Shown: positions 8,562 through 63,889 of the stretch, piece after piece | How the letters are laid out: every line of letters begins with the position of its first letter | How positions within the stretch are numbered: the first letter of the stretch is position 1 | DNA from: Escherichia phage DK-13 | Sequence record: MT611523.1 | Reading direction: 5' to 3' (one strand) | DNA: 64,000 nt | The notes under the pieces: model-generated | Databases searched by the model: none | What the model saw: only the letters and a program-made list of their open reading frames with translations | What the model was told of the DNA's origin: nothing | Position numbers and translations under genes: made by a program

Positions 8562-8594
8562 AAAGAAAGGGACCCGAAGGTCCCTTTTTTATTT
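8560..8594. terminator. bidirectional rho-independent terminator between convergent gene 54 and the 8589..8879 ORF
   Basis: GGGACCCGAAGGTCCC hairpin flanked by A-run upstream and T-run downstream. Confidence 0.7.
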
Positions 8595-8879
8595 GCGGAA
8601 TGAAATGAAACCTGCTGCAGTCATTACAACTTCTTTCTTAGCAAAGACTGTAATTGCAATTGGTGCTTCAGATTCAAGTTGCCCAGTTACTACACCATTA
8701 AAAATATTTTCTGTTTGTTCAGAATTTACAAAGTTTTCAACAGGGCGAAGGTCAAACTTCTTATCTTCGCCAAACACGCGCCGCAGTTCATTACCCACCG
8801 CGCTGTCAAACTCTTCTGAAGCCGGGATAACATTCTCAACTACTAGTTCCTGACCATTAAAGCGAAAAGATGATTTCAT
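8589..8879 (-). CDS. hypothetical protein (alt-proximal small ORF)
   Basis: Start moved to ATG with GAGGAAAACAAA SD (MKSSFRFNGQ...); about 96 aa. Confidence 0.5.
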   Translation of the reverse strand: MKSSFRFNGQELVVENVIPASEEFDSAVGNELRRVFGEDKKFDLRPVENFVNSEQTENIFNGVVTGQLESEAPIAITVFAKKEVVMTAAGFISFRK

Positions 8880-8942
8880 TTTGTTTTCCTCATGTGCAAT
8901 TGATATGAACATTGTATCGCACTTCCTTGTGCTTGTAAACCC

Positions 8943-11036: not shown

Positions 11037-11040
11037 CTAA

Positions 11041-11060
11041 AAAAGGGCCGAAGCCCTTTT
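11041..11060 (-). terminator. rho-independent terminator after gene 30
   Basis: - strand AAAAGGGCTTCGGCCCTTTTTT right after ligase stop. Confidence 0.65.
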
Positions 11061-11061
11061 G

Positions 11062-14849: not shown

Positions 14850-14947
14850 AGTATTTTCCTCAAGGGGCTTTCGCCCCATTTAAGATTAGATATCAAATTC
14901 ATTAAGAACTACATCAAAGATTGCTTCCAGGTGTTCAGTATGGAATC

Positions 14948-14977
14948 ATTATGCACTGGACAACCCCTGTTGTAAAC
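14948..14977 (-). promoter_or_regulatory. early promoter (GTTTACA, 17-nt spacer, CATAAT) directly downstream of terminator
   Basis: - strand GGGTTTACAACAGGGGTTGTCCAGTGCATAATGATTCCATACTGA; shares the 3' half CATAATGATTCCATACTGA with copies at 50092 and 53991. Confidence 0.5.
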
Positions 14978-14984
14978 CCTTTAT

Positions 14985-15016
14985 GGAAAATAAAAAAGGG
15001 ACTCCGAAGAGTCCCT
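14985..15016 (-). terminator. rho-independent terminator
   Basis: - strand GGGACTCTTCGGAGTCCC then TTTTTTATTTT, right after stop of the 15021..15182 ORF. Confidence 0.7.
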
Positions 15017-15182: not shown

Positions 15183-15479
15183 ATTAAATTCTCTTTAAAA
15201 ATAGAATGCAGGACTTATTGACATTGCCTGCGCAAGCCCTCGAAGGGAACATTAGGTTTCGGATATTTAACGACAGGATAACCATAAACCTCGTCATCAT
15301 ACCAACCACGACTTAGACAGATAACCTTTTTCTGACGCGTGATAGTACAAAATACATTCAAGAGGTACACCATAAAACTGTCGGGGTCTTAAAACTATAA
15401 CGATTCGCAAATCATTAATCAGACAGTTCGATGGCTCCTCGATTTTCTAGCCGCACTAAGGTAGCGAATCACCTAAAAC

Positions 15480-17979: not shown

Positions 17980-18521
17980 CAGATTGTCTCCTGTTTTACT
18001 TGTTTAACGATAGAAGCTTTTGTGATATCGCCTTTGATAATATAGCAATCTTCAACAGTACCACGGTTTAACAGACGCTCTGCTTCGCCTTCCGCATATT
18101 CTTTTGACACATGACGAGAGTTAATCTCAATCTTGCCATTTTTAACCACAAGCAATTTCCAAACTGATGCAAGTTTTACTGGCACAGGTTCAACTTCTGG
18201 CTTAACACCAACTTCTGCCTGGATGAAATAATCAAATTCATCAGACAATGGACCAGCAGAAACAAACATTGCCCCATGATGCCTGTTCTGTGTGCCAGAT
18301 ATTTTTGGCAAATCCACAAAATCATTTTCATCAATCAAACGAATCTCACAAACTTTTTTACCGCCGCTGATGTCATCGGATAAAATCTTAACTTCAAACG
18401 GAGTCATACCGATGTATCCAGCAATTTGGTAATTGGCTGCCCAGCCTCCGGCAATAAACTGTTTTTTGGCATTTTCAGATACAAATTTGTAAAACTTACC
18501 TTCTTCAAAGAAATCGCTCAT
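17979..18521 (-). CDS. hypothetical protein, member of an in-window paralog family (GKFY...AKKQFIAG N-terminus)
   Basis: 180 aa; N-terminus EEGKFYKFVSENAKKQFIAGG similar to the ORF at 31834..32202; own early promoter upstream. Confidence 0.55.
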   Translation of the reverse strand: MSDFFEEGKFYKFVSENAKKQFIAGGWAANYQIAGYIGMTPFEVKILSDDISGGKKVCEIRLIDENDFVDLPKISGTQNRHHGAMFVSAGPLSDEFDYFIQAEVGVKPEVEPVPVKLASVWKLLVVKNGKIEINSRHVSKEYAEGEAERLLNRGTVEDCYIIKGDITKASIVKQVKQETI

Positions 18522-18550
18522 TTTGTTTTCCTCATGTGTTGATGAAATTC

Positions 18551-18579
18551 ATTATACACCATCCATGGTGAAAGTAAAC
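18551..18579 (-). promoter_or_regulatory. early promoter (GTTTAC, 17 nt, TATAAT) with palindrome CACCATGGATGGTG in spacer
   Basis: - strand GTGTTTACTTTCACCATGGATGGTGTATAATG then SD GAGGAAAACAAA. Confidence 0.5.
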
Positions 18580-18581
18580 AC

Positions 18582-18860
18582 TTAAATTGCTTCGACAACT
18601 ACCGTTTGTTTCTGGAAGTCCATTTTGCATGAAATAGCCAAAATATGGTTATCAATTTTAAATGGAACAATTGCAAATGCTGCACCAGGCGTGAGTTGAA
18701 CAGTGATTGCATCAACTGCATCCGGGAACATGATTTCCAGAATAGCAGACAAACGACCGTGCACTTTTAGTTCAGTCGACACGTCGACGCTTTCGTATAG
18801 ATAATCAGATACAATCTGACTAAAAAGTACTTTAACAATTTCAGAATATGTAGGAAACAT
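18582..18860 (-). CDS. hypothetical protein
   Basis: 92-aa ORF. Confidence 0.5.
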   Translation of the reverse strand: MFPTYSEIVKVLFSQIVSDYLYESVDVSTELKVHGRLSAILEIMFPDAVDAITVQLTPGAAFAIVPFKIDNHILAISCKMDFQKQTVVVEAI

Positions 18861-20752: not shown

Positions 20753-21231
20753 ACACCAAGCTCCTTATAAAGTTCTTCGCGACAAGTTTTAAGGATTTTA
20801 CCAGTTTCATAAGCTGCGCTTTCAGAAACATCACCAAGTGTGGCGGCAGCTTGCATTTGACCATGGCGTTTAGCCGCATATTCAAAACTTTTTACCAGTT
20901 CACGAATACGTTCTTTTTCATTGTATTCTTCAATAAATTCTGGGTATTCCCAAACAGGTCGCATCATACGATACCAATGCTGAATAGTAATATAATTACT
21001 TCCATCCAGATTAATAATTTGCGAAGGCTTAATAGCGCCCGGGGCATAAAAAGTTACCTGTCTCACTACATCAATACCGTCCACAATAGCCCAAGCAAAA
21101 TTGAAAGTGGCCTTCTTTTCAATTGGTGTGCTTGCACAGGACCCTAATTTTAAGAGCTTTTGTAATACAGGAGATTTAACACCTGAAATGTATTCAGGCT
21201 TAGCCACAAAACTGTTATCACGTAATGTCAT
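20749..21231 (-). CDS. hypothetical protein with its own promoter cassette
   Basis: Start moved to ATG after GAGGAAATGATT (tracker start lies inside the promoter); about 160 aa. Confidence 0.5.
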
Positions 21232-21258
21232 AATCATTTCCTCAAATTTTATTATCCG

Positions 21259-21294
21259 TGGGAGCATTATACTCTGCTCCCATGAGTTTGTACA
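21259..21294 (-). promoter_or_regulatory. early promoter with inverted repeat spanning -10
   Basis: - strand TGTACA-aactcatGGGAGCAgag-TATAAT-gCTCCC; arms GGGAGCA/TGCTCCC. Confidence 0.5.
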
Positions 21295-21398
21295 CTATTT
21301 TCCAAAAAGACCTTGAATATGCAAAGTGGTCGCAATTCCAAAACAAAAACAGAATGCACCAAATCTAACAATATCCCAACCAAGGCTACAGGTCTCTA

Positions 21399-22546: not shown

Positions 22547-22780
22547 TTAGTAGCGGTTATAACCCCGGGGACCAAAAGAGTTGGCACCCAGGCGCTCATC
22601 TTTCTTTTTGGCTCTTGCTCTAAACCCAGAATCACCTGTTTGAGCTTTCAGTTCTTTTAACAATTTGGCCTTCAGGTCAGTAATGAAACCAATCCGGCGG
22701 TCTCCCTTATAGACATAGATTCCATCATTTCTGTCACCATATGCCTTTGTAACTCTGTCATTTGTAATTAAGTTTAACAT
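22547..22780 (-). CDS. hypothetical 77-aa protein, paralog of the N-terminus of the 22030..22533 protein
   Basis: YGDRNDGIYVYKGDRRIGFITDLKAKL vs YGDRHDGIYVYKGTKKIGLMTDLRKKL; own promoter. Confidence 0.5.
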   Translation of the reverse strand: MLNLITNDRVTKAYGDRNDGIYVYKGDRRIGFITDLKAKLLKELKAQTGDSGFRARAKKKDERLGANSFGPRGYNRY

Positions 22781-22811
22781 GTTTTGGTCCTCATCAGTAG
22801 TTGATGGAACC

Positions 22812-22850
22812 ATTATGTATAGAAAGAAGGGGCTTGTACACCCCTTTTTA
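22812..22850 (-). promoter_or_regulatory. compact terminator-promoter: -35 TGTACA sits in the loop of the rnlA terminator hairpin, -10 CATAAT
   Basis: - strand AAAAAGGGGTGTACAAGCCCCTTCTTTCTATACATAATGG. Confidence 0.5.
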
Positions 22851-23987: not shown

Positions 23988-24400
23988 TTCTTCACCTTAT
24001 GTTGGTAATTCCACGGGGGATTAAAAAGCTTGATGAACATCGGCTCTTCCAGAGACATCGTTTCGACTGACATTGTGCCAAGTTCATTGGTCATTGACAG
24101 ATTGAAACATTGACGTGCATAGAATACCACCTTTTTACCTTCTTGTAAAGCTTCATGTATCATCCGGGATTTGTTTGAATCACTCGTCTGTTCGATTCGG
24201 TTAATTGCAGTCCGGTAATAGTTGATACGCTTCTTAAGGTTGTTCGTCTTACCAATATACACTAGTTCATCATCAACTGAAATAGCATAGATAACATTTT
24301 TCTTGTTTGCGAGAGTAAGGATAGGGATTTTACCATCGACTAACTCTAACTCCGCGTATTTTATAAAACTGTATTCATCAGCGATTTGTTTCATGGGCAA
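23984..24400 (-). CDS. denA: endonuclease II (GIY-YIG family)
   Basis: 138 aa; GIY-YIG-like VIYAIS...LVYIGKTNNLKKR; position between nrdB and rnlA. Confidence 0.75.
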   Translation of the reverse strand: MPMKQIADEYSFIKYAELELVDGKIPILTLANKKNVIYAISVDDELVYIGKTNNLKKRINYYRTAINRIEQTSDSNKSRMIHEALQEGKKVVFYARQCFNLSMTNELGTMSVETMSLEEPMFIKLFNPPWNYQHKVKK

Positions 24401-24420
24401 AAAGGGCCGAAGCCCTTTCC

Positions 24421-25599
24421 TTATAGATATTTACGGAAACTAGCAAGAACATTCTCATCGACGTCATTGTCAATCTGGGCTACCAGGTAAGCAGACAACT
24501 CAACTTCTTGTGGTGCAGATTGCACATTATCAGAGTTAAGATATTCACGAATCCATGGAATCGGGTGCTTAGTAGATTCTAACACGATTTCACAAGGGAG
24601 ACCGCATTGCTTCATACGAGAAACCGTCAGGTAATCGATGAACCGGTTAAGAATCTCGACGCTCAGCCCAGGGAGTCCACCATCTTTAAACAGATGCACG
24701 GCCCATTCTTTTTCCTGGCGATTAACTTCCATGAAAATGGCTGCGGCTTCTGCTTCACATTCGTGAGCGATTTTAACCCATTCGTCACCGTCAACACCAG
24801 TTTGCAGCTGACGAAGAATATATTGGGTCCCCTTAAGGTGGAGCTGCTCATCACGGGCGATGAACTTCATTATCTTCGCATTACCTTCCATGATTTCCAT
24901 GTTCTTATGGAAGTTAAAGGTGCATGCGAAAGATACATAAAAACGAATAGCTTCCAGGGCGTTAATAACATGCAGGCAGAGATAAAGAGACTTCATCAAT
25001 GCTCGTTTGGCGATAGCTTCTTGTTTGATAGCTCGTTCCAAACGTTCGTCCGCTTCGGGAGTTTCTTTGGCCAGTTCAACAAAAGCAATCTGGTTTTGCC
25101 ATTGACGAGTTTTATTCAGAACATCATCATAGTAATGACCAATGGATTCTGCGCGCTTCATGATTGCATCATCTAACAGGATTTCGTCGAATACCTTCGC
25201 CGGGTCCGTATAGAGATTTCGCATGATGTGCGTATAAGAACGAGAGTGAATTGTCTCGCTGAATGTCCAGGTCTGAATCCATGTATCAAGACTCGGGTCG
25301 GAAACTAATGCGGCTAATGCTGCAGCTGGAGCACGTCCCTGGATACTATCCAGAAGTGATTGGTATTTCAGGTTATTGGTAAAAATATTTTGTTGATGTT
25401 CAGGAAGCTTATTAAATTGGGCTCCATCCATCATCAGGTTTACTTCCTCAGGTCGCCAGAAGTACGAGAGTTGACGCTCTGTCAACTCTTCAAACTGTTT
25501 GTGTCGCTGGATATCATAACGGGCGATGCCCAATCCAGAACCGAAGAACATCGGCTCGGCTAAAACATCCACCGGAGTGGTATTAAAAACTGTACTCAT
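24421..25599 (-). CDS. nrdB: ribonucleotide reductase small (beta) subunit, uninterrupted
   Basis: Diiron RNR beta features; start moved to MSTVFNTTPVDVL (ATG at 25597-25599); no intron. Confidence 0.9.
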   Translation of the reverse strand: MSTVFNTTPVDVLAEPMFFGSGLGIARYDIQRHKQFEELTERQLSYFWRPEEVNLMMDGAQFNKLPEHQQNIFTNNLKYQSLLDSIQGRAPAAALAALVSDPSLDTWIQTWTFSETIHSRSYTHIMRNLYTDPAKVFDEILLDDAIMKRAESIGHYYDDVLNKTRQWQNQIAFVELAKETPEADERLERAIKQEAIAKRALMKSLYLCLHVINALEAIRFYVSFACTFNFHKNMEIMEGNAKIMKFIARDEQLHLKGTQYILRQLQTGVDGDEWVKIAHECEAEAAAIFMEVNRQEKEWAVHLFKDGGLPGLSVEILNRFIDYLTVSRMKQCGLPCEIVLESTKHPIPWIREYLNSDNVQSAPQEVELSAYLVAQIDNDVDENVLASFRKYL

Positions 25600-26324
25600 T
25601 AATTTTTCCTCTTTAAAATTCTTCCACGTTTCCAACCTGAAGGTATAATACCACCCTTTTCTATAAGCGTACAAGATGAGCCATCATTAATCCAAATTTT
25701 ACCGCGTATTCCTTTATATGCTCGGTCCTTGACTTCTGCAAAGGTTGCATCCGGTTTATATGACCATCTGAATCCATATGCATATTGGAATTTCCCTTCT
25801 GCACAATATTTTAGATTTGATGCATTACCGTTAACATGCCGAGCAGCTTCGGCAATTGACTGGAAGCTTTCAATAAATTTTCCGGCTAAATCAAATTTGA
25901 AAATTTTAATTGATGGAACCGAAGTTCTATTTGCAATTGAAACTTGTTCTTTAGATTTATCGGAATGATGCTTACCTAACATTCCCTTTGGATGTGGATT
26001 ATTTTTAAAATATTCTTTCATATGTTTGGAAGAGGACTCTGCAAATCTAAGTCTATGCCATTCATATAATCGATTATTCAATCTATTACCAAATTTATCC
26101 GTACACATTAATGTAATAGCACAAAGTAATCCATGAGTTCTATATATTTTGTACAGTAATTGATGCGCAACGAAATGTTCTCGAGCTGATAATTTAACTA
26201 AATTGGATTTGTCATCTGTGCCGCCCATGCATTTGGGAATAATATGATGGGATTCGGTATAGCCTTCTAAAGGAGAGGCTTTCCGCCTCTCAATTAGAGA
26301 ATCATATATTTTCTTATAATTCAT
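25599..26324 (-). CDS. mobE: HNH homing endonuclease (MobE-like) inserted between nrdA and nrdB
   Basis: HNH motif ESHHIIPKCMGGTDDKSNLVKLSAREHFVAH; NUMOD-like GKHHSDKSKEQVS; ATG overlaps nrdA stop, stop overlaps nrdB ATG. Confidence 0.8.
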   Translation of the reverse strand: MNYKKIYDSLIERRKASPLEGYTESHHIIPKCMGGTDDKSNLVKLSAREHFVAHQLLYKIYRTHGLLCAITLMCTDKFGNRLNNRLYEWHRLRFAESSSKHMKEYFKNNPHPKGMLGKHHSDKSKEQVSIANRTSVPSIKIFKFDLAGKFIESFQSIAEAARHVNGNASNLKYCAEGKFQYAYGFRWSYKPDATFAEVKDRAYKGIRGKIWINDGSSCTLIEKGGIIPSGWKRGRILKRKN

Positions 26325-31262: not shown

Positions 31263-31502
31263 TCACGCTTTCTTAGCGACTTTCCAGTCAGCTTTAAATT
31301 GGTCAACGTCAGAGTGATGAATCCAGAAACCAGATGAGCTACCATCTTCATAAAGAGGACAACCATCACACTCATCTTTCCAACCCATTGCACACAAAGT
31401 TTCTTCAGCTTTTTCCAGAGCTTCTGGATTGTTACCCTGGATTGTGAAATACCATTTGCCTTTAACTTCTGAATCTTTGATGCTCTCACGTTGTAATTTC
31501 AT
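31263..31502 (-). CDS. hypothetical protein
   Basis: Tracker start is TTG inside the promoter; ATG start after CTGGAGAATAAA gives 79 aa (MKLQRESIKD...). Confidence 0.5.
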   Translation of the reverse strand: MKLQRESIKDSEVKGKWYFTIQGNNPEALEKAEETLCAMGWKDECDGCPLYEDGSSSGFWIHHSDVDQFKADWKVAKKA

Positions 31503-31541
31503 TTTATTCTCCAGTTTTGTTGTGTAACTCAATATGGGACC

Positions 31542-31570
31542 ATTATGTCATAGCCCCATTTGGTTGTACA
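31542..31570 (-). promoter_or_regulatory. early promoter (TGTACA, 17 nt, CATAAT)
   Basis: - strand AAAAAGTAGTGTACAACCAAATGGGGCTATGACATAATGGTCCCATATTGAG. Confidence 0.45.
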
Positions 31571-31577
31571 CTACTTT

Positions 31578-31832
31578 TTAAATTTTATCAAGCCATTTTC
31601 CAAGTTTAGTCATTTCCTTGGTGGCTTTTTCCATACTTCTGAATTTAATTAATAAAGGATAGGTATCTACACCCATCACCAGATTGGTTGCAAGACTATG
31701 TTCACCAACAAGCCATAATGAGTATGTTTGAACATCCAGACCATAATTTCTGTCTTTATGTAAACGTACACCCATCACTTCAAATTGTTCACTGGCTTTT
31801 TCCACTGCATTCAGGAAATCATCTTTAGTCAT
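31578..31832 (-). CDS. hypothetical protein
   Basis: 84 aa from first ATG (tracker start is TTG). Confidence 0.45.
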   Translation of the reverse strand: MTKDDFLNAVEKASEQFEVMGVRLHKDRNYGLDVQTYSLWLVGEHSLATNLVMGVDTYPLLIKFRSMEKATKEMTKLGKWLDKI

Positions 31833-31833
31833 A

Positions 31834-32202
31834 TTAGACCCCAAAAGTTGCTTTAATCAGTGCAATGACTTCTGCGGCATTTTTGTGATTGACTTGCACA
31901 TGAATGGTTTGGGTATCAACATCAGGAGCATCGCCATCAACTTCCAGGAAGTGACAGAATTCCCATTCAGCGAGTTCAAAGTACTCATCAACATCACCCA
32001 TACTATTCAGGATGGTACCATCTTTCATTTCAACTTTTTCAACAAAATAATCACCTTCAATATAACACATATCCAGGACTTTGAAGGAACTACCATGTTG
32101 TTCCATCAACTTGACCATGCACGAATTATCATCAGGACTACCAGCGATGAATTGTTTTTTAGCAGCAGGGTCTAATACGTAAAATTTACCAGTTTCCATC
32201 AT
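31834..32202 (-). CDS. hypothetical protein, paralog family member
   Basis: Start moved to ATG after GAGGAAATTAAA; 122 aa; similar to 32550..32912 over full length and to 17979..18521 at N-terminus. Confidence 0.5.
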   Translation of the reverse strand: MMETGKFYVLDPAAKKQFIAGSPDDNSCMVKLMEQHGSSFKVLDMCYIEGDYFVEKVEMKDGTILNSMGDVDEYFELAEWEFCHFLEVDGDAPDVDTQTIHVQVNHKNAAEVIALIKATFGV

Positions 32203-32225
32203 TTTAATTTCCTCATTTTTGTTGA

Positions 32226-32260
32226 GGGAACATATTATCATGTTCCCGTTGGTTTGTATA
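32226..32260 (-). promoter_or_regulatory. early promoter with perfect palindrome GGGAACAT/ATGTTCCC around -10
   Basis: - strand TATACAAACCAACGGGAACATGATAATATGTTCCC. Confidence 0.45.
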
Positions 32261-32488
32261 CTAAGCTTGAATCAAGCCCATATAAAATTCAGCGTCTTCC
32301 GGGTGCATCCCTTCGCAATATTCATTTTGCATAAAGCGGGTAAGGTCTTCAAGAGGACCTTGAACTTCAATTTGAATACTAAAGAATTGGGTATCTTTAA
32401 TGTAAGTCATACACAAAGAAGGATACCGATTACGAATAACTTCGTAAGTGTATTCAAAATCAACGATATCAATATTAACCTTAGCCAT
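32261..32488 (-). CDS. hypothetical protein
   Basis: 75-aa ORF, SD GAGGAAAATAAA. Confidence 0.5.
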
Positions 32489-32517
32489 TTTATTTTCCTC
32501 ATGTAGTTGATAGGTCT

Positions 32518-32547
32518 ATAGTATCTCAACCATAGACCGTTGTAAAC
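32518..32547 (-). promoter_or_regulatory. early promoter (GTTTACA, 17 nt, TACTAT) with inverted repeat GGTCTAT/ATAGACC
   Basis: - strand AGTTTACAACGGTCTATGGTTGAGATACTATAGACC. Confidence 0.45.
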
Positions 32548-32549
32548 TG

Positions 32550-32912
32550 CTATTTGAAAGCTTTTTGTAGAAGTTCAATGATTTGGTCGACGTTATTAGC
32601 ATCTACAACACAATTAATAGAAACCGCCCCCGAAGGTGTTTTTGTATAATTGGAGTATTCACGGAAGCAATAAAACTCTTCTTCACTAAGTTCAAAATAA
32701 TCATCACCCATGCCATCATCATTATAGATTGCACCATTAGCACAAATGATTTCGGTTACATAATCATAGCCGTCTAAACTTGATATTGATTTAACTTCAA
32801 ACCAACCGCCATTTTCTTGGATGATGTCGACCATACTAGCATTCGATGAACTAATATCAATGAAAGATTTAATACGATGTGGATTGAACTCATATTTTTT
32901 GCCGATTTCCAT
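32550..32912 (-). CDS. hypothetical protein, paralog family member
   Basis: 120 aa; shares DxYFEL.E.EF motif and overall pattern with 31834..32202. Confidence 0.5.
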   Translation of the reverse strand: MEIGKKYEFNPHRIKSFIDISSSNASMVDIIQENGGWFEVKSISSLDGYDYVTEIICANGAIYNDDGMGDDYFELSEEEFYCFREYSNYTKTPSGAVSINCVVDANNVDQIIELLQKAFK

Positions 32913-32950
32913 TTTTATTTCCTCAGTTGTTATCAGTAGTTGATGGAATC

Positions 32951-32979
32951 ATTATGCCTTAGCTCAAGGGGATTGTACA
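32951..32979 (-). promoter_or_regulatory. early promoter (TGTACA, 17 nt, CATAAT) fused to gene 32 terminator
   Basis: - strand ...TTTTTATTTTAAAAAAGTAGTGTACAATCCCCTTGAGCTAAGGCATAATGATTCCATC. Confidence 0.5.
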
Positions 32980-32984
32980 CTACT

Positions 32985-33016
32985 TTTTTAAAATAAAAAA
33001 GGGACCCGAAGGTCCC
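32985..33016 (-). terminator. rho-independent terminator after gene 32
   Basis: - strand GGGGACCTTCGGGTCCC then TTTTTATTTT. Confidence 0.7.
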
Positions 33017-33022
33017 CTTATA

Positions 33023-33983: not shown

Positions 33984-34622
33984 TTAATTATACTTCAAAG
34001 TGATTGAAGCGATAAACTTTTGAAATTCAGAATCAAGATGGGGATTCCATCCTAATTTGAATTTATTTATAATGGAAATACCGGTCGTGTGTGTACACGG
34101 TAAACCAGTTTCTCTTGCCATAATAACTGGACCAAGTCTGGAAGTTCTATGCGGTCCTATATACCAGTCATAATATATTCCAGCATTTAACCAAACTAAA
34201 TGAGCACCTTTAGCTATTGTATTAGGATGTTCCCAAGGCAATAAACCTTTAAGGTGAGAATTTAATTTCATATTTATTTTATGTGATTCTGATTTTGGTT
34301 TACCTTTTAATGAAGACTTAAAGGTTCCACGAGCACTCGCCTTATTGAAAAACAATGGCGATTTAACCACATTATAGTGTTGATGGTAAAACTCTTCTTC
34401 TGACAACACATCGTCACACACATGCAGAATTTTAACGGTTGGTTTTTCAGACAATGCCTCAATAAAACGAGATTGTTTGCATGAAGACCAGTATTCTTTA
34501 TTATGTGAATCAATTATAACACCATTTTCAAAAGCACAATTATGCTTTGACCCAATGTAAAAATAAGGAGGCGTTTTATTTTTCAGACGAGTTTCAAATG
34601 TAAACCAATATACAACATTCAA
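33984..34622 (-). CDS. homing-endonuclease-like ORF (GIY-YIG/NUMOD-like, SegG position between 32 and 59); no ATG start, possibly degenerate
   Basis: Tracker start codon is TTG; first in-frame ATG only at codon about 118; N-terminus VVYW...YFYIGSK resembles a GIY..YIG motif pair; GKPKSESHKINMKLNSHLKG resembles NUMOD3. Confidence 0.4.
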   Translation of the reverse strand: MNVVYWFTFETRLKNKTPPYFYIGSKHNCAFENGVIIDSHNKEYWSSCKQSRFIEALSEKPTVKILHVCDDVLSEEEFYHQHYNVVKSPLFFNKASARGTFKSSLKGKPKSESHKINMKLNSHLKGLLPWEHPNTIAKGAHLVWLNAGIYYDWYIGPHRTSRLGPVIMARETGLPCTHTTGISIINKFKLGWNPHLDSEFQKFIASITLKYN

Positions 34623-49215: not shown

Positions 49216-49824
49216 TCACTTTAAGATGTTAATAACATGTTGAATGTTTTCAGTTGACATAACATTGTCAATGTAGGTATTCAATCCACCCACTTTAACG
49301 CTAAATCCCACATCTGTAAACTGTTTTACTATCTTTTGTTCAGTATTATACGCATGTACGCGAATCTGACCATCACGCCGCACATCAATCTGTTTTAATG
49401 TCTTGATACGCTTGAACTTCACAATCAGATTGCTGCGGTCTTCTGAAATGCTCTTAAAGTCAATACCAATAGACAATAATTGCTCTTTGATATATTCTGC
49501 AGTCGCTTCCATTTCATCAGTAACACCGCGTTTTGTTCTTGTCTTCTTCACTTCCAGAAGGTCGGGATTATTTTCATTCGCCCAAAGTTCAGCTGCATCC
49601 AGAATAAGGTCAACACCCTTTTCTGTAATCATCAAACCATCACCAGAAGCTTCAACATAGTTGTTATTCAACAATGTCTGCACGCTATCAATTGACGTGT
49701 TCTGCTGGCCTAAAACAACCTCAGGACGCACGAAGTTGTTTTTGTATACAAACACCAGAGCATTAACATCAGTCTCATGTAGAGCGTTCTGGGAGCATTT
49801 AACGATATAATTTAACTTGTTCAC
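49216..49824 (-). CDS. motA: middle-transcription activator MotA
   Basis: 202 aa; GDGL.IT..G.D.I and KQFTDVGFS resemble remembered T4 MotA; position next to 52. Confidence 0.75.
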   Translation of the reverse strand: MNKLNYIVKCSQNALHETDVNALVFVYKNNFVRPEVVLGQQNTSIDSVQTLLNNNYVEASGDGLMITEKGVDLILDAAELWANENNPDLLEVKKTRTKRGVTDEMEATAEYIKEQLLSIGIDFKSISEDRSNLIVKFKRIKTLKQIDVRRDGQIRVHAYNTEQKIVKQFTDVGFSVKVGGLNTYIDNVMSTENIQHVINILK

Positions 49825-49826
49825 AA

Positions 49827-50042
49827 TTATCCCTTAATAGATTTCATATAATTTGATGCATATGATTGTACCACAGTACGTTTCATATGGGAAGTAGAAA
49901 CAATCACATCAATCGCTTGTTTACGTTCTTCTTTAGAGTTTGCCAGTTTGAACATGTCAAAGTAGTAATAACAAGCTTCTTTATTAGATTTGAATTTAGC
50001 GTTAATGTATTCTTGACCTTCATTCTGTTGTGCAGTAAACAT
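49827..50042 (-). CDS. hypothetical protein
   Basis: Start moved to ATG after GGAGAATAAA (MFTAQQNEGQ...); about 71 aa. Confidence 0.45.
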   Translation of the reverse strand: MFTAQQNEGQEYINAKFKSNKEACYYYFDMFKLANSKEERKQAIDVIVSTSHMKRTVVQSYASNYMKSIKG

Positions 50043-50091
50043 TTTATTCTCCAAAGTTTTTGTGATTCATTGTGTAACTCAGTATGGAATC

Positions 50092-50120
50092 ATTATGCAG
50101 CGGGTCAAGGGGATTGTACA
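50092..50120 (-). promoter_or_regulatory. early promoter (TGTACA, 17 nt, CATAAT) fused to terminator
   Basis: - strand AAAAAAAGTAGTGTACAATCCCCTTGACCCGCTGCATAATGATTCCATACTGAGTTAC. Confidence 0.5.
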
Positions 50121-50130
50121 CTACTTTTTT

Positions 50131-50158
50131 TAAAATAAAAAAGGACCCCGAAGGGTCC
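50131..50158 (-). terminator. rho-independent terminator downstream of gene 52 and the 32-aa ORF
   Basis: - strand GGACCCTTCGGGGTCC then TTTTTTATTTT. Confidence 0.7.
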
Positions 50159-50256
50159 TAGTCTTTATCTATCTTATTACCAATAAACATACCAACAATC
50201 ACACCTGCGATTGCCGCGAAAATACAAAGCAATGCAAACTCAACTCCAAAACTCAT
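50158..50256 (-). CDS. 32-aa hydrophobic membrane peptide, translationally coupled to gene 52 (ATGA)
   Basis: MSFGVEFALLCIFAAIAGVIVGMFIGNKIDKD; SD TGGAGG inside gene 52 3' end; not in ORF track. Confidence 0.35.
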   Translation of the reverse strand: MSFGVEFALLCIFAAIAGVIVGMFIGNKIDKD

Positions 50257-52031: not shown

Positions 52032-52481
52032 TTAATAGCTCTGTAAAATGAATTTAAAGTTATCAGCAAGCATGCGATTCATTTCTGAAAGGGTCTGGCA
52101 ATCAGAACTATGTGAGCGAGTGAACGCCATCGCAATTTGACCTTTACCATAACCAGTTGTCAGAGGTTTCATTTTAGAAACTGGGACAAACAGGACTTCA
52201 TAGATAACCCCATTGTTCGCCATTGTGCGAGACAGTTGCGAACGCTGTTTGCGGATGTGACTTAATACAGTGTCAAACCCTTGTTGTGAACGTTGGTTAC
52301 CAACATAAAAACGTGCGGCAACAATACGTGATTCGCCTTCACCTTTGACCACGAAATAAAAACCTGGTTGGGTGACAGCTTCTTTAGTTGGACGCCCTGC
52401 AACATAATTGCCATTATGGATGTGAGCAACAGTGGTAGCGCCAGCATTCAGTACGTCACGACGGGTCATGTAAGTAGTCAT
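52032..52481 (-). CDS. hypothetical 149-aa protein, candidate Ndd (nucleoid disruption) by position and size
   Basis: Between gene 52 and rIIB, size close to T4 Ndd; sequence only vaguely familiar. Confidence 0.4.
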
Positions 52482-52520
52482 ATTAATTTCCTCAGTAAGT
52501 TAAAGTTTTGTGCTCCAGTG

Positions 52521-52555
52521 GGGGTCATTATACTCTGACCCCAAGAGTTTGTACA
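52521..52555 (-). promoter_or_regulatory. early promoter with inverted repeat spanning -10
   Basis: - strand TGTACA-aactcttGGGGTCAgag-TATAAT-gACCCC; arms GGGGTCA/TGACCCC. Confidence 0.5.
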
Positions 52556-52900
52556 CTATTTTTGAAGTTGTTCTAAAATAAATCCGCTGGTGTAAAGGCT
52601 TGCATTATACAGGCGGTCAAGAGACAACGAATCCAATCCATAAGCTTCGCGAATTGCATTGATAACACTCTCATAACTTGTATAATAAACATCACGATAA
52701 TCGCGGTCCATAGTCATGCGGAACTTAATAAATTTGTAGAAACCAGTTTCAGGGTCCTGATAGAATGCAAATTCTGCAGACATCAAATTTTTAAGGTTAA
52801 CAGCTTTTGTACCACCTGAATAACTTAAATCAAATGCTTCTGATATGCTAATCTGTTTAAAGAACATAATGTTGCGATTACCAAAAAATACTTTAGACAT
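52556..52900 (-). CDS. hypothetical protein
   Basis: 114-aa ORF with own promoter. Confidence 0.5.
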   Translation of the reverse strand: MSKVFFGNRNIMFFKQISISEAFDLSYSGGTKAVNLKNLMSAEFAFYQDPETGFYKFIKFRMTMDRDYRDVYYTSYESVINAIREAYGLDSLSLDRLYNASLYTSGFILEQLQK

Positions 52901-52932
52901 AATATTTTCCTCAATTAAATTTTATTATCCAC

Positions 52933-52967
52933 GGGAACATTATACTCTGCTCCCAAGAGTTTGTACA
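52933..52967 (-). promoter_or_regulatory. early promoter with inverted repeat spanning -10
   Basis: - strand TGTACA-aactcttGGGAGCAgag-TATAAT-gTTCCC; arms GGGAGCA/TGTTCCC (one G-T wobble position). Confidence 0.5.
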
Positions 52968-53213
52968 CTATTCTACATCTACTGCGCCATCCCACAAGTC
53001 AACTTCTTCTGATGATTCCATCAGTTCATCAACTGTGAAGCACTCAGTATTATTTTCAATTGCAAAACGCTTCTGATAAAAAGGATAATCCAAACAGTTT
53101 TCAGTGCGCACGGGGCGTTCACTGTTATCCATTAAAGGCGAAATGCGAATCAGTTGTTGACCATTACCCAGGACAAATTTTTCACCAACTGCAATGTCTT
53201 TAAAAAGTTTCAT
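52968..53213 (-). CDS. hypothetical protein
   Basis: 81-aa ORF. Confidence 0.5.
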   Translation of the reverse strand: MKLFKDIAVGEKFVLGNGQQLIRISPLMDNSERPVRTENCLDYPFYQKRFAIENNTECFTVDELMESSEEVDLWDGAVDVE

Positions 53214-53426: not shown

Positions 53427-53543
53427 TCAAAAGAAATAGTTAAAGTAAACACGCACATGGTCAATCATAAAAACAATTGGGAAAATGCTCAGGACAACAA
53501 ACAGTACAAACATGTTCCAAATGGCTTTAAGTAACTTTTTCAT
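53427..53543 (-). CDS. 38-aa hydrophobic peptide, not in ORF track
   Basis: MKKLLKAIWNMFVLFVVLSIFPIVFMIDHVRVYFNYFF after SD CTGGAGATGATT. Confidence 0.3.
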   Translation of the reverse strand: MKKLLKAIWNMFVLFVVLSIFPIVFMIDHVRVYFNYFF

Positions 53544-53688
53544 AATCATCTCCAGTAGTTGATAGGTTCATTATACTACAACCACTGGAGATGTATACTC
53601 TTTTATGCAAGTTTCATTAATAATAAACTAAAACAAACGCAAATTACTGGGATACACAATATCCAGATAAGACACCAGGTTTTGCTGC

Positions 53689-53955
53689 TCAAAATATCAC
53701 CTCTTTGATTTCAATCAGACCACGGTGCAATGCAGTGCGAAGGTCATAAAGAATATCTATGCCATCAACATTATCCAGTTTTCCATCAATAAGCTTTTTT
53801 AAATCACGCTTTGATGCAACTAGCGGGCGAAGAAATTTACATTCAGAAAGAGACAACTCTGTAGTAACATCATCACCATCACCTGACGCATCATACATGG
53901 CGGCAACAACCATACCTGTAACTTTGTGCTTGGCGTAATATAATTTGATATCCAT
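53689..53955 (-). CDS. hypothetical protein
   Basis: 88-aa ORF, SD GGAGAAACAAA. Confidence 0.5.
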   Translation of the reverse strand: MDIKLYYAKHKVTGMVVAAMYDASGDGDDVTTELSLSECKFLRPLVASKRDLKKLIDGKLDNVDGIDILYDLRTALHRGLIEIKEVIF

Positions 53956-53974
53956 TTTGTTTCTCCAGTTTGGT

Positions 53975-54019
53975 AACTCAGTATGGAATCATTATACATA
54001 GACTCCATACTGATGTACA
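53975..54019 (-). promoter_or_regulatory. early promoter with 10-bp inverted repeat flanking -10
   Basis: - strand TGTACA-TCAGTATGGA-gtctatg-TATAAT-gat-TCCATACTGA. Confidence 0.5.
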
Positions 54020-54030
54020 CTACTTTTTAA

Positions 54031-54306
54031 TTAATTTTGCATTTGTTCTTTAACTTCTTTATATGCGCCAACTGCATTCACGACCCCAGTAAAATCTGCA
54101 GTCCCACGATAGAGATAGAAAGCAATTTCAGTCAGGTGGTAGACTTCAAATTCTGAAAGATAAACGATAACGTCATAATATGCAACTTGACCCTGGACTT
54201 CGTTGAATACCACATCAAAAATTTCATGGGTTGGAAAATTGATGTTGTTGTTTTTGAGTGCTTGGATAAGAATTTGTTTGATGTTGTGAGTAGTAACGTG
54301 TTCCAT
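54031..54306 (-). CDS. hypothetical protein
   Basis: Start moved to ATG after hairpin-embedded SD (MEHVTTHNIKQ...); 91 aa. Confidence 0.5.
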   Translation of the reverse strand: MEHVTTHNIKQILIQALKNNNINFPTHEIFDVVFNEVQGQVAYYDVIVYLSEFEVYHLTEIAFYLYRGTADFTGVVNAVGAYKEVKEQMQN

Positions 54307-54312
54307 GATAAT

Positions 54313-54338
54313 GTCCTCATTTGTTGGTATGAGGACAT
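54313..54338 (-). promoter_or_regulatory. hairpin sequestering the Shine-Dalgarno of the 54031..54306 gene
   Basis: - strand TGTCCTCA-taccaacaaa-TGAGGACA then TTATCATG; SD GAGGA lies in the 3' arm. Confidence 0.45.
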
Positions 54339-54367
54339 TATTACACAGTTGGTTCAGCTTGTAAACC
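54338..54367 (-). promoter_or_regulatory. early promoter (GTTTACA) inside the 3' end of the upstream gene
   Basis: - strand GGTTTACAAGCTGAACCAACTGTGTAATAATG. Confidence 0.4.
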
Positions 54368-55506: not shown

Positions 55507-56481
55507 TTAGAATTGTTCAGTTACATCGTCAAGGACTAAGTAACCACAGACCCGCATTTTGGAATCATTATAATCCACCGGGATACTTACAACATCACGC
55601 GGGTGAACTTTACAGGATACGATGCGTCCATCACCATGACCAAAACCACTTCCGATATAACCTTTAGAGCAAACATGCAGCCCGGTTGAACAGGTCTGTT
55701 CGTCATTATCGTTCACACGAGAGCGCGGCATTTTAACATATTGGCCAGGGCTGTTGTCGAATGTATTTGAGTGACAATCTTTGTAAGTTGCACGAACCAT
55801 TTTCCATGTGATGAAATGACCGTCTTCGGTGATTTCAATATCGTTCGCAACCAGGAAGTCAAACAAACGCTGTACAGCTTTTTCACTCGGGTTCTCAAGG
55901 AGATTCTCAAGGAACGGCAGATAGAATTCAAAGTCTTCGCCATTTTGCATTGAATCAATGATACGAGTAACCAGGCCGGAGCGCAGTTCAATTCCCTGAT
56001 AGAACAAACTACCACCTTCAATACGCACATCACCTTTCACATATTTTTGTACTGCAGCTTTGATTGAGATAAACTCGATAGCATCATCAAAACGAGATTC
56101 TTTGAGTGCCTGAATAATATCATCAAAGTGTTTATGGTCTTTTGTTGCGTTCCAGACTGTACGACCTTCAGTGATGGAAACGAATTTGCTTGATGCGTTC
56201 CATACGATTTCTGGACGGCTACCGCCGATTGTATCTTCAACAACCGGGACTTCAACCGTTACTGTCACCGGAGCATTAATCGCCACCCCGACAGCGGCTT
56301 TCAATGATGCAGAAATGGTTTTAGATAATTTTGATTCTTTATCATTTTTCAAAACACGGCGAATGGTGTCAACCGATACACCGAAATTATCTGCTAGTTC
56401 CTGTTGGGTATAATTACCAGTTTTATAAAGAGAAACTACCTGGTTTTGGTCAAATTTGGATAAAGCTTTAATATTAAACAT
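55507..56481 (-). CDS. rIIB: rIIB lysis-inhibition/membrane-integrity protein
   Basis: 324 aa directly downstream of rIIA; sizes and order as in T4. Confidence 0.8.
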   Translation of the reverse strand: MFNIKALSKFDQNQVVSLYKTGNYTQQELADNFGVSVDTIRRVLKNDKESKLSKTISASLKAAVGVAINAPVTVTVEVPVVEDTIGGSRPEIVWNASSKFVSITEGRTVWNATKDHKHFDDIIQALKESRFDDAIEFISIKAAVQKYVKGDVRIEGGSLFYQGIELRSGLVTRIIDSMQNGEDFEFYLPFLENLLENPSEKAVQRLFDFLVANDIEITEDGHFITWKMVRATYKDCHSNTFDNSPGQYVKMPRSRVNDNDEQTCSTGLHVCSKGYIGSGFGHGDGRIVSCKVHPRDVVSIPVDYNDSKMRVCGYLVLDDVTEQF

Positions 56482-59210: not shown

Positions 59211-59239
59211 ATCTTAACGCAATTTTTATGGCTTGTACA
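59211..59239 (-). promoter_or_regulatory. early promoter (TGTACA, 17 nt, TAAGAT)
   Basis: - strand TTATGTACAAGCCATAAAAATTGCGTTAAGATG. Confidence 0.4.
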
Positions 59240-59242
59240 TAA

Positions 59243-59264
59243 TAAAAAAGGACCCGAAGGTCCT
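59243..59264 (-). terminator. rho-independent terminator
   Basis: - strand AGGACCTTCGGGTCCT then TTTTTTATTAT. Confidence 0.65.
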
Positions 59265-59269
59265 TTTGG

Positions 59270-61319: not shown

Positions 61320-61346
61320 ATTATAAGTCACATATTTTAAAGCAAA
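61320..61346 (-). promoter_or_regulatory. MotA-dependent middle promoter upstream of gene 39
   Basis: - strand TTTGCTTTA (MotA-box-like), 12-nt spacer, TATAAT; overlaps T-run of upstream terminator. Confidence 0.5.
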
Positions 61347-61362
61347 AAGGCCCGAAGGCCTT
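61343..61362 (-). terminator. rho-independent terminator
   Basis: - strand AAAGGCCTTCGGGCCTTTTT right after stop of the 61363..61761 gene. Confidence 0.65.
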
Positions 61363-61761
61363 TTATTTGAATCGAAGCTGCTCTAACATTTTAATAGCTT
61401 GTAGACGTCCGGCTTCAGTTTTAACCGTAATAATAACATCACCGCCGGTAACAACGATATCCTCTTTTGATTCCTGTTCGGTTATTTCAGAATCACATTC
61501 CGGGACTTCTTCAAAATATTTAAATTCATCACCAAAAATAAGACCGGTTCCATTACGACTATGGAAAGAAAACCCAGTTCCATCGATAGTACTAAATTCC
61601 GTAACAACATTTGCTTCCATCTTAGTGACTGAAAACTCTTTGGTAGTAACCAAATCAATGATAGAGGTTCCTTGTTGGTTCAAAATGCTACCAGGCATAC
61701 CGACATGTTTAAGGAAGCCATCTAAATCTTTAATGCAATAACTCTTTCCAATTTTAAACAT
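61363..61761 (-). CDS. hypothetical protein
   Basis: Start moved to ATG after GAATGAGGATATT; about 132 aa. Confidence 0.5.
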   Translation of the reverse strand: MFKIGKSYCIKDLDGFLKHVGMPGSILNQQGTSIIDLVTTKEFSVTKMEANVVTEFSTIDGTGFSFHSRNGTGLIFGDEFKYFEEVPECDSEITEQESKEDIVVTGGDVIITVKTEAGRLQAIKMLEQLRFK

Positions 61762-62850: not shown

Positions 62851-63342
62851 TTAGGCACGATGAATATCAGCATACTCAACGATAAAGCTTTCAGGAACCA
62901 CCTTAAAGGTTCCAAGGAACACGATGTTATAGAGCTTAACGCCTTTTTCAACCCACTGGTCTGTGATGTAACCAGACATGCTAGTGGTTTCATAAGTACC
63001 AAAAGGTTCGTCAACATATTCAAACGGTTTAGGTGAAACAAAAAAGACACCTTTGCCCAATTTCCATTTAAAATCAACCCCAACATGAGACTGGTCAATG
63101 GTTTCAACTTCTTCGGTCACAGGAGCGATGTACCCAGTAAATTCGGTTGATTCCAGGAATTTAGGATGTACATAAGCCAATTGAGTTTCAGTCTGGCCAT
63201 TTTTAGGAATAATACGCACTTTAACTTCTTTAATTCCACCTACTAAATTAGTGCGAAGACCCACAACCTCAACAAAACGACCAGCAGCTTTAGAACGAGA
63301 TTCTTTAGAAACACGTGCAATATCACCAACTTCAACTTTCAT
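62851..63342 (-). CDS. hypothetical protein; candidate MotB-like by position/size; paralog of the next gene
   Basis: 163 aa; basic beta-rich N-terminus MKVEVGDIARVSK...; C-terminus ...GYITDQWVEKGVKLYNIVFLGTFKVVPESF similar to 63419..63889. Confidence 0.4.
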   Translation of the reverse strand: MKVEVGDIARVSKESRSKAAGRFVEVVGLRTNLVGGIKEVKVRIIPKNGQTETQLAYVHPKFLESTEFTGYIAPVTEEVETIDQSHVGVDFKWKLGKGVFFVSPKPFEYVDEPFGTYETTSMSGYITDQWVEKGVKLYNIVFLGTFKVVPESFIVEYADIHRA

Positions 63343-63378
63343 AATTTTCTCTCTTGGTTAATAAGTTTATTCTCCAGT

Positions 63379-63413
63379 GGGGCCATTATACTCCGGCCCC
63401 AAGAGTTTGTACA
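63379..63413 (-). promoter_or_regulatory. early promoter with inverted repeat spanning -10
   Basis: - strand TGTACA-aactcttGGGGCCGgag-TATAAT-gGCCCC. Confidence 0.5.
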
Positions 63414-63418
63414 CAAAT

Positions 63419-63889
63419 TTAATTAAAAATTTCAACAGCCATGGAACGTGGTACAACAGTAAATTCACCAGCATGGACAACGTTCAGGAGTTCAACACCA
63501 TCTTCAATCCACTGGTCTGTTACCCAACCACAAATGGAACTATTAAATGGACGTTTGATTTGAACTGGTTTACACAACAAGTCAATAGGGTCACCCAGCT
63601 CGCTAACTTCTTCCAGCAGTACAGATTCACGCGGATAAAGGATAGCTTCAAGATTGTCACCTGATTCATTGACTGCAGTAAATTCAAAAATGCTTTGGTG
63701 ATTGTGGTACTTAACTGTTTTAACGGTAAATGGAGCAAATCCAAAAATACCTTTCAGTACCCGCCAACCGGCATTCAATGCATTAGTATTATCAAAATCA
63801 CCATATCCAACAAGTTGATAGGTTTTGTCAACTTTGATAGGAGTTTCTTCAACTTCTTTGAAGAGTTCAATCTCAGCTTCATAAACCAT
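63419..63889 (-). CDS. hypothetical protein, tandem paralog of 62851..63342; reading frame stays open upstream to the window end
   Basis: C-terminus ...CGWVTDQWIEDGVELLNVVHAGEFTVVPRSM; no in-frame stop between 63890 and 64000, so the true start may lie outside the window. Confidence 0.45.
   Translation of the reverse strand: MVYEAEIELFKEVEETPIKVDKTYQLVGYGDFDNTNALNAGWRVLKGIFGFAPFTVKTVKYHNHQSIFEFTAVNESGDNLEAILYPRESVLLEEVSELGDPIDLLCKPVQIKRPFNSSICGWVTDQWIEDGVELLNVVHAGEFTVVPRSMAVEIFN

Follow-up and report, generated by a model that had tools for sequence, protein, structure and literature searches.

The intergenic region between gene 52 and motA in Escherichia phage DK-13 carries a terminator hairpin followed by a promoter, and parts of this arrangement recur at other places in the 64,000-nucleotide stretch of DNA that was analyzed (the window). 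This raises the question of whether such modules resemble each other as functional signals or because sequence has moved between them. The initial annotation favored recombination between cassettes, based on the mosaic pattern of their shared halves. The window is coliphage DNA of the genus Gaprivervirus (the VR7/VR20/SP18 group of T4-like phages) and is 92-97% identical to genomes of this genus, among them VR20, VR7, SP18, and the TH series. No promoter analysis of VR7/SP18-type phages emerged from a literature search, the genome papers in Arch Virol being outside its reach. With a probability of about 0.8, the elements are PeSL-type composite regulatory cassettes of Gaprivervirus, in which patches are exchanged and parts are reassorted.

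The module upstream of motA and its family

The module between gene 52 and motA, M8, lies on the minus strand and reads, in order, AGGACCC-TTCG-GGGTCCT, TTTTTATTTT, AAAAAAA, GTAG, TGTACA, 17 nt, CATAAT, and GATTCCATACTGAGTTACAC, up to TTTGGAGAATAAAATG. The predicted intrinsic terminator is the hairpin AGGACCC-UUCG-GGGUCCU (50142-50159, minus strand; 7 pairs, then TTTTTATTTT), which folds at -13.6 kcal/mol (z -2.4) and is kept in the 15 genomes of the M7/M8 alignment. The base of its stem overlaps the stop codon that ends a small ORF located after gene 52. The terminator T-run TTTTTTATTTT is followed by an A-run (50121-50141, minus strand), which forms an AT-rich, UP-like stretch upstream of the -35. 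The -35 hexamer TGTACA, within AGTAGTGTACA (50115-50120, minus strand), and the -10 hexamer CATAAT (50092-50097, minus strand) were found by both the module matrix and the generic scan. They are separated by the 17-nt spacer ATCCCCTTGACCCGCTG (50098-50114, minus strand), the 5' part of which is common to M7; this spacer is polymorphic among orthologues, and its variants also occur in M7. After the -10 comes the conserved type-A leader GATTCCATACTGAGTTACAC (50072-50091, minus strand), which covers the discriminator and the initially transcribed region and is common to M2, M12, M6, and the version of M7 in TH15, TH57, and ECML-359. The module ends with the SD GGAGA and the ATG of a 71-aa ORF (VR7 gp277-like; 50040-50052, minus strand) that precedes motA (49216-49824). 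In the annotation of VR20, M8 has the same setting, with gene 52 on one side and a small ORF and then motA on the other. The promoter and the terminator of M8 were each picked up independently by the generic scan. The 7-bp stem, the UUCG loop, UUUUUUAUUUU, and the stop codon at the stem base agree with a rho-independent terminator, and the same features were found in M7 (after gene 32) and M2. Between gene 52 and the M8 terminator there is also a 32-aa hydrophobic ORF, MSFGVEFALLCIFAAIAGVIVGMFIGNKIDKD (~50158-50256, minus strand), which is annotated in VR7 (gp278), P8, and RZ and unannotated in VR20.

All sequences quoted for the terminator-promoter modules in the initial annotation are present on the minus strand, which is the gene strand. 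The post -10 segment reported as shared by the copies at 14.9, 50.1, and 53.9 kb, CATAATGATTCCATACTGA, is exact at 14935-14953 and 50079-50097 and has one mismatch (TATAAT) at 53978-53996; such segments lie just outside the intervals quoted for the copies and not within them, as in the M8 leader (50072-50091). The CATAATG-type segment attributed to the 32951 and 22812 copies is CATAATGRTTCCATCAACTACTGA (22794-22817 and 32933-32956), and the 5' half attributed to the 50092 and 32951 copies is GTAGTGTACAATCCCCTTGA (32964-32983 and 50105-50124). These three segments occur 3, 2, and 2 times, respectively, against 0.00-0.01 expected from 100 shuffles. Two details need correction, in that the 53.9-kb copy has TATAAT and not CATAAT, and the 14.9-kb copy has GTTTACA and not the -35 quoted for it. 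The UUCG-loop terminator, described for several intergenic modules, was found only in the copies at 14.9, 32.9, and 50.1 kb, whereas the others have stem-loops overlapping the -10 or the -35.

A repeat search of the window returned 10 copies of one 46-nt unit. In total, the 13-17 copies of the window are 60-90% alike over 50-110 bp and are located at 8.9-34 kb and 50-63.4 kb, with none in the tail-fiber block. A generic sigma-70 scan gave 37 matches versus 28.6 in shuffles, including M8, M9, M10, M11, and M12. Being barely above shuffles, it cannot define the family, and a module-specific matrix was needed. This matrix, built from the -35 and -10 blocks, found 13 sites on the minus strand and 0 on the plus strand (shuffles ~0.25); it recovers only its 13 training sites, and the weaker modules were added by a looser pattern. 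All 13 strong copies are on the transcribed gene strand, upstream of a ribosome-binding site and an ATG. An SD and ATG follow the -35 at 55-80 nt in 14 of the 16 modules; M2 lost its ATG through a 781-bp deletion, and M13 has an SD/ATG, GAGAGAAAATTATG, ~72 nt after the -35 that this pattern did not catch. The modules are kept at orthologous sites in 8-14 relatives. BLAST detects the family only in Gaprivervirus, at 6-10 places per genome, with weak matches in Morganella and Providencia T4-like phages and none in T4. Rfam at gathering thresholds gave no match in the window. A scan of IMG/VR with the 14-mer CATAATGATTCCAT returned, among the matches listed, almost entirely unrelated contigs.

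The other copies, all on the minus strand, differ in how a stem-loop is combined with the promoter. The UUCG hairpins upstream of M2, M7, and M8 fold at -13.6 to -14.7 kcal/mol. M2 (14935-15015) has a UUCG terminator (14998-15015), GTTTACA, 17 nt, CATAAT, and a truncated type-A leader that stops after ACTGA at the 781-bp deletion, which is specific to the window. M7 (32910-33017) joins the gene-32 UUCG terminator (33001-33017) to the promoter and type-B leader CATCAACTACTGA of an FRD2-family gene, the SD/ATG of which forms its 3' end. Stems surround the -10 in M4, M6, M9, M10, M12, and M13 and the -35 in M5. In M12 (53953-54028; promoter TGTACA, 17 nt, TATAAT; type-A leader), the spacer repeats the leader in inverted orientation, resulting in a 13-bp stem around the -10 (-19.3 kcal/mol, z -6.0). 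M5 (22778-22850) has a promoter and a type-B leader, and its stem AAGGGG/CCCCTT encloses the -35 (-11.1 kcal/mol). M6 (31500-31582) combines a promoter with the type-A-like leader GGTCCCATATTGAGTTACAC and has a stem that surrounds the -10; in relatives, indel junctions occur at both edges of this module. M4 (21229-21304) is a type-C module with GGGAGC-AGAGTATAAT-GCTCCC around the -10 (-15.2 kcal/mol), and the gene directly after its ATG varies among relatives. M10 (52898-52977) is a paralogue of M4 with 90% identity. M9 (52479-52565; GGGGTC...GACCCC), upstream of ndd, and M13 (63340-63423; GGGGCC...GGCCCC) are also of type C; at the M13 site, TH57 has GGGGTC...GACCCC. The type-C copies keep their stems via G-T or double changes.

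M11 (53541-53605) has the promoter TATACA, 16 nt, TATAAT and a 9-bp stem, ATCTCCAGT/ACTGGAGAT, that pairs the promoter spacer with the downstream SD. Judged by its position, this stem would be formed by read-through RNA only, so that the SD would be masked in read-through RNA only, an arrangement likened to that known for T4 genes e, soc, and 49. A further module at 54306-54366 (minus strand) has a 10-bp stem, ATGTCCTCAT/ATGAGGACAT, downstream of the -10 that covers the SD. M3 (18519-18590; GTTTACT ... TATAAT, leader CATCAACACATGAGG) and M1 (8877-8950; GTTTACA ... TACAAT) also lie on the minus strand, together with two weaker modules. The first of these is M6b (32200-32270; GTATACA ... GGGAACAT-GATAAT-ATGTTCCC), which is a boundary of swapped cassettes, and the second is M6c (32486-32555; GTTTACA ... 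GGTCTAT..GATACTATAGACC), a relative of which takes the place of M6 in TH15 and TH57. Judged by their consensus, position, strand, and conservation, the modules appear to serve as promoters, terminators, and expression cassettes.

C(UUCG)G-type hairpin and T-run terminators without an adjacent early promoter occur at 8556-8587, 11040-11065, 24399-24424, 59236-59267, and 61344-61369 and form two repeat families in the window. The leader-like sequence TATAATGATTCCAA is found at 55555-55572 (minus strand) within the 3' end of the rIIB coding sequence; at this site, TH54 has unrelated sequence, with a 500-bp insert just downstream.

Exchange between module copies

M7 and M8 are 17 kb apart in the window (32.9 and 50.1 kb), and both were aligned from 15 genomes. 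Compared with 14 other M7 orthologues, the M7 of the window has C changed to A before the A-run and AAGTCC changed to AATCCC, and each change equals the M8 of the window. An M7 identical to that of the window was absent from 32 records (best 98.5%). In VR20, M7 contains the M8-type spacer GACCCGGTG instead of GAGCTAAGG, with five changes within six bases, and in four genomes it is M8 that carries the M7-type haplotype (AAGTCCC). These patches are flanked by blocks that are identical in both copies, AAAAAGTAGTGTACAA and CATAATGATTCCAT. The conversion calls are based on few sites, namely 3-4 in the window and 5 in VR20.

A mosaic could also arise by chance, with no exchange between copies, if the motif variants were selected or had converged on a functional consensus. 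In favor of this, the shared elements (-35, -10, A/T tract, UUCG hairpins, and SD) are without exception signals with a function; orthologues hardly differ in the type-A leader, which is what purifying selection would produce; and AGTAGTGTACA with <=2 mismatches gives 19 matches versus 13.6 expected, which means that this block alone is not over-represented. However, the identity between copies enters the spacer, for which no sequence requirement is known, and exact 20-mer and 24-mer repeats occur where 0 are expected. Spacer polymorphisms are common to the paralogous M7 and M8 and not to orthologues, the clustered substitutions in VR20 M7 recreate the M8 spacer within 6 nt, and the order of cassettes is permuted. 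The shared spacer variants mean that functional consensus alone fails as an explanation. It is largely refuted by these variants and by the cassette permutation, and is hardly credible. The invariance of the leader could nevertheless reflect selection and not homogenization.

Leaders and whole genes are involved in the exchange as well. The 5' half of M7 does not vary, whereas genomes differ in the combination of leader type and downstream gene at this site. ECML-359, TH15, and TH57 have the type-A leader with an X-like FRD2 gene, VR7 has the type-B leader with the X-like gene, the window and most other genomes have the type-B leader with gene Y, and VR25 has a further variant. The genes downstream of M6b (31834-32202, minus strand) and M7 (32550-32912, minus strand) are diverged FRD2-family paralogues, and each of them precedes a small ORF. 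In TH15 and TH57, two FRD2 cassettes of ~660 bp are present in the opposite order, and all three boundaries fall within M7, M6b, and M6. A simple insertion plus deletion was rejected for this rearrangement, as BLAST shows a swap of the paralogous FRD2 cassettes. In TH54 and TH57, a 370-bp ORF is inserted between two UUCG terminators with a 22-nt overlap. The 90% identity of M10 to M4 includes the leader; the window, TH41, and TH44 have M10, whereas VR20, TH54, TH15, TH57, and TH55 lack it, and the indel covers the promoter core alone. The recombination between cassettes that was first read from the mosaic is supported in the relatives by the M7/M8 patches, the reassortment of leaders and genes, the cassette swap, and the M10 core. 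It can be concluded that the modules are dispersed repeats, that pieces move between them, and that some cassette rearrangements end in them.

Recognition of the stem-loop by a dedicated site- or structure-specific enzyme, like attC in integrons, is a possibility raised for PeSL stem-loops by Arbiol 2010 (PMC2839356). The stem-loops are constant, and many are directly around the -10. In addition, TH41 (MT446412; record flagged UNVERIFIED) has, in the orthologue of 21266-21295, the 10-nt M4 loop AGAGTATAAT exactly inverted to ATTATACTCT between the 6-bp arms GGGAGC/GCTCCC; the inversion takes the -10 off the gene strand and shows this inverted repeat to be recombinogenic. The same inversion is also explained by template switching at a quasi-palindrome, and the stem sequences vary between module types. 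The junctions are spread across leader, SD, -35 edge, terminator, and spacer, with no single fixed crossover in a conserved site, which makes a site-specific system very unlikely. It is also improbable that the stem-loops enclosing the -10 are more than attenuators and are themselves the active recombinogenic part, through a structure-specific phage nuclease or template switching on a hairpin or cruciform. If they were, promoter cores could hop alone (M4 to M10) and loops could invert (M4 in TH41), patch copying would be far more frequent than 15-30 nt of homology allows, and the modules would be a targeted diversity-generating system rather than passive homology.

Breakpoints of gene-content differences

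Eight relatives covering at least 50 kb of the window were compared with it by chaining BLAST blocks, with the tail-fiber block left out. The expectation that breakpoints in relatives coincide with modules held in part: 11 of 37 distinct indel or replacement events touch a module, but about two thirds occur outside the modules, where plain SD-ATG junctions or homing-endonuclease inserts are involved. Modules make up 4.7% of the sequence, and 12-13 of 48-58 junction sites are inside them versus 2.4-2.8 expected (P<1e-4), which is ~5-fold over the area expectation. The enrichment of modules over plain gene starts is weak and varies with the treatment. One treatment of the gene-start null gave 13 versus 10.5 expected (P=0.24) and a second gave 12/29 versus 20% (P=0.006); this null is only approximate, since automatic gene-start calls misplaced some starts (M4, M6).

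It is possible, at clearly less than even odds, that the modules are passive landmarks, with microhomology-mediated illegitimate recombination or replication slippage acting anywhere and selection keeping ends at expression signals. The modules would then be at junctions only as occupants of gene starts. In agreement with this, 27 of the 58 junction points are <=25 nt from a called gene start versus 5.9 expected, nearly all junctions checked by eye are at an SD-ATG or a stop codon, and the first treatment of the gene-start null gave P=0.24. The junction overlaps are 3-22 nt with or without a module, which falls short of the ~50 bp commonly cited for homologous recombination in T4.

One junction of this kind is in the window itself, where a 781-bp deletion (14880-14938, minus strand), seen in none of the eight relatives, removes gene 30.8 and most of 30.7. 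Its junction (14935-14938) consists of 4 nt (CTGA) and fuses the M2 leader to an internal position of the 30.7 coding region, and the M2 promoter now reads into the 3' remnant of 30.7. M2 shares the leader only up to ACTGA because of this deletion, and the ACTGA end of the 14.9-kb copy, which had been counted as part of the cassette mosaic, is instead a 4-nt-microhomology deletion. A module-by-module deletion was also considered for the 781-bp difference at 14.9 kb and rejected, as the 4-nt junction runs into the coding region. The M2 junction is plainly an illegitimate, 4-nt-microhomology event with no cassette exchange.

Passive landmarks leave several observations unexplained. These are the indel-free exchange between copies 17 kb apart (the window M7 patch that equals M8, and the VR20 M7 spacer), the existence of M10 as a 90% copy of M4 together with its leader, and the swaps of leader type at a fixed site. 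Furthermore, the second treatment of the gene-start null indicates an excess at module-bearing starts (P=0.006). The microhomology route probably accounts for most of the non-module events and coexists with exchange between PeSL-type cassettes. For the latter, the evidence from exchange between copies is stronger than that from breakpoints.

Other differences among the genomes involve inserts. One insert at 25599-26324 (minus strand), between nrdB and nrdA, contains an extra ORF with HNH and NUMOD1, and another at 33984-34622 (minus strand), between genes 32 and 59, contains an extra ORF with no Pfam match; each is missing from seven relatives. In T4, the latter position holds segG. Both inserts are probably homing-endonuclease genes. 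No endonuclease insert with junctions flanking the gene was found among the module-associated events. At 15303-15354, after a promoter-like GTGTAC..17..TACTAT, the window has 43-50 nt and five relatives have a 143-152-nt GC-richer insert; a GC-richer insert is at 4092-4245 in one relative. This insert of the relatives gave no Rfam match and no tRNA (ARAGORN).

Relation to PeSLs and proposed role

A PeSL of RB49/phi1 combines a sigma-70-like promoter with an AT-rich tract, with a stem-loop that overlaps the -10 or -35 or lies upstream of it, and with an SD and ATG at its 3' end; crossovers fall between the -10 and the ATG (Arbiol 2010, PMC2839356). The PeSL consensus in T4/PST is TTTACW-N17-TAYWAT (Comeau 2014, PMC4122927). 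The modules of the window have all of these parts. By sequence, 13 sites carry an early promoter of the form T(G/T)TACA, 16-17 nt, (C/T)ATAAT; A-runs or T-runs lie directly upstream in most copies; and the stop codon of the upstream gene is in or beside the module in M8, M10, and M6. A stable stem-loop is found upstream of, between, or overlapping the promoter boxes, and an SD and start codon are at the 3' end in 14 of 16 modules. There are multiple copies in variable early regions with indels, with the weak excess over gene starts described above, and chimeric modules resulting from exchange between copies (M7/M8 patches, leader swap, cassette swap, M10).

As in RB49/phi1, the modules are composites of ~100 bp with a stop codon in the AT-rich tract, a promoter, a stem-loop, and an SD/ATG, are present in many copies in variable early regions, flank indels of close relatives, and have crossovers between the -10 and the ATG. 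They differ in belonging to Gaprivervirus and not to Krischvirus, with no BLAST-level similarity. Where RB49/phi1 have near-perfect TTGACA/TATAAT, the modules here have T(G/T)TACA as the -35 and in many cases CATAAT as the -10, and a separate C(UUCG)G terminator is present in three copies. For RB49/phi1, the formation of mini-circles and activity in reporters have been demonstrated. With the PeSLs of T4/PST they share the TTTACW-N17-TAYWAT-type consensus, a stem-loop just upstream of the promoter, and an SD/ATG at the end, and with those of both T4/PST and KVP40/nt-1 the clustering at indels in hyperplastic regions. The ndd region is variable in the T4/PST and KVP40/nt-1 study and here (52-54 kb). 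Unlike in T4/PST and KVP40/nt-1, the sequence family here is genus-specific; moreover, exchange was inferred from genome pairs by Comeau 2014 (PMC4122927), whereas 9-15 genomes were compared here.

T-even internal-protein loci, as described in the papers that cite Repoila et al. 1994 (PMC2839356, PMC4122927), contain, in close T4 relatives, variable small genes bounded by repeated early promoter/terminator sequences; these are different loci from those considered here, and no mechanism is given in those descriptions. Lambdoid morons and integron cassettes are similar to the modules in that an individual gene moves together with expression or recombination signals of its own. The signals of lambdoid morons, however, are not thought to mediate movement, and integrons have a dedicated integrase with a fixed crossover in attC, whereas the modules have no fixed crossover. 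T4 immediate-early genes such as motA have an A-rich tract, a GTTTAC-like -35, and a TATAAT-like -10, and T4 intercistronic regions contain very stable C(UUCG)G tetraloop hairpins. The A-rich tract, the -35, the -10, and the UUCG hairpins are thus common to T4 and the modules, whereas descriptions of T4 early promoters cover function and not mobility. To our knowledge, the long conserved leader families GATTCCATACTGAGTTAC and CATCAACTACTGA lie outside the T4 early-promoter consensus. T4 early promoters and UUCG hairpins are said to have been treated by Wilkens and Ruger in the 1990s, Miller et al. in 2003, and Tuerk et al. in 1988. PeSL-mediated modular shuffling has already been published, and the family described here is a lineage-specific case in another genus.

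The following role can be proposed for the modules. The promoter of each cassette would be of the T4 early type and read by host sigma-70 RNA polymerase. It comprises an A/T tract, the -35 T(G/T)TACA, a 17-nt spacer, and the -10 (C/T)ATAAT, and it is followed by a conserved leader of 20-40 nt, at the end of which lie the SD and ATG of the small early gene. The stem-loop is a putative C(UUCG)G terminator just upstream of the promoter in three copies and overlaps the -10 or -35 in the others. In this manner, the cassette may stop upstream transcription and then restart it, which would allow small gene cassettes to be expressed independently early in infection. Given their similarity over 50-110 bp, the copies act as dispersed homology, and gene conversion transfers patches of 10-40 nt from one distant copy to another, with the -35 block and CATAATGATTCCAT as anchors. 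The combinations of leader and downstream gene change, and whole cassettes are lost, gained, or rearranged in order through junctions located in the leader/SD, at the edge of the -35, or in the terminator. The general recombination and replication machinery of the phage probably carries this out on short homology, and selection would keep only products with working expression signals.

With these results, PeSLs are described for a fourth lineage of T4-like phages. Evidence beyond the reach of the original pairwise studies comes from the use of 9-15 genomes, which reveals conversion patches between two named distant copies, leader/gene reassortment at one site, gain or loss of a lone promoter core, and a cassette swap bounded by modules. 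The PeSL model is tempered at the same time, as the ends of most gene-cassette indels in Gaprivervirus are at ordinary SD-ATG junctions that overlap by 3-22 nt. Promoter modules thus represent one class among several short conserved signals that serve as junctions. The modules also provide a ready annotation map of the early transcription units in Gaprivervirus genomes.
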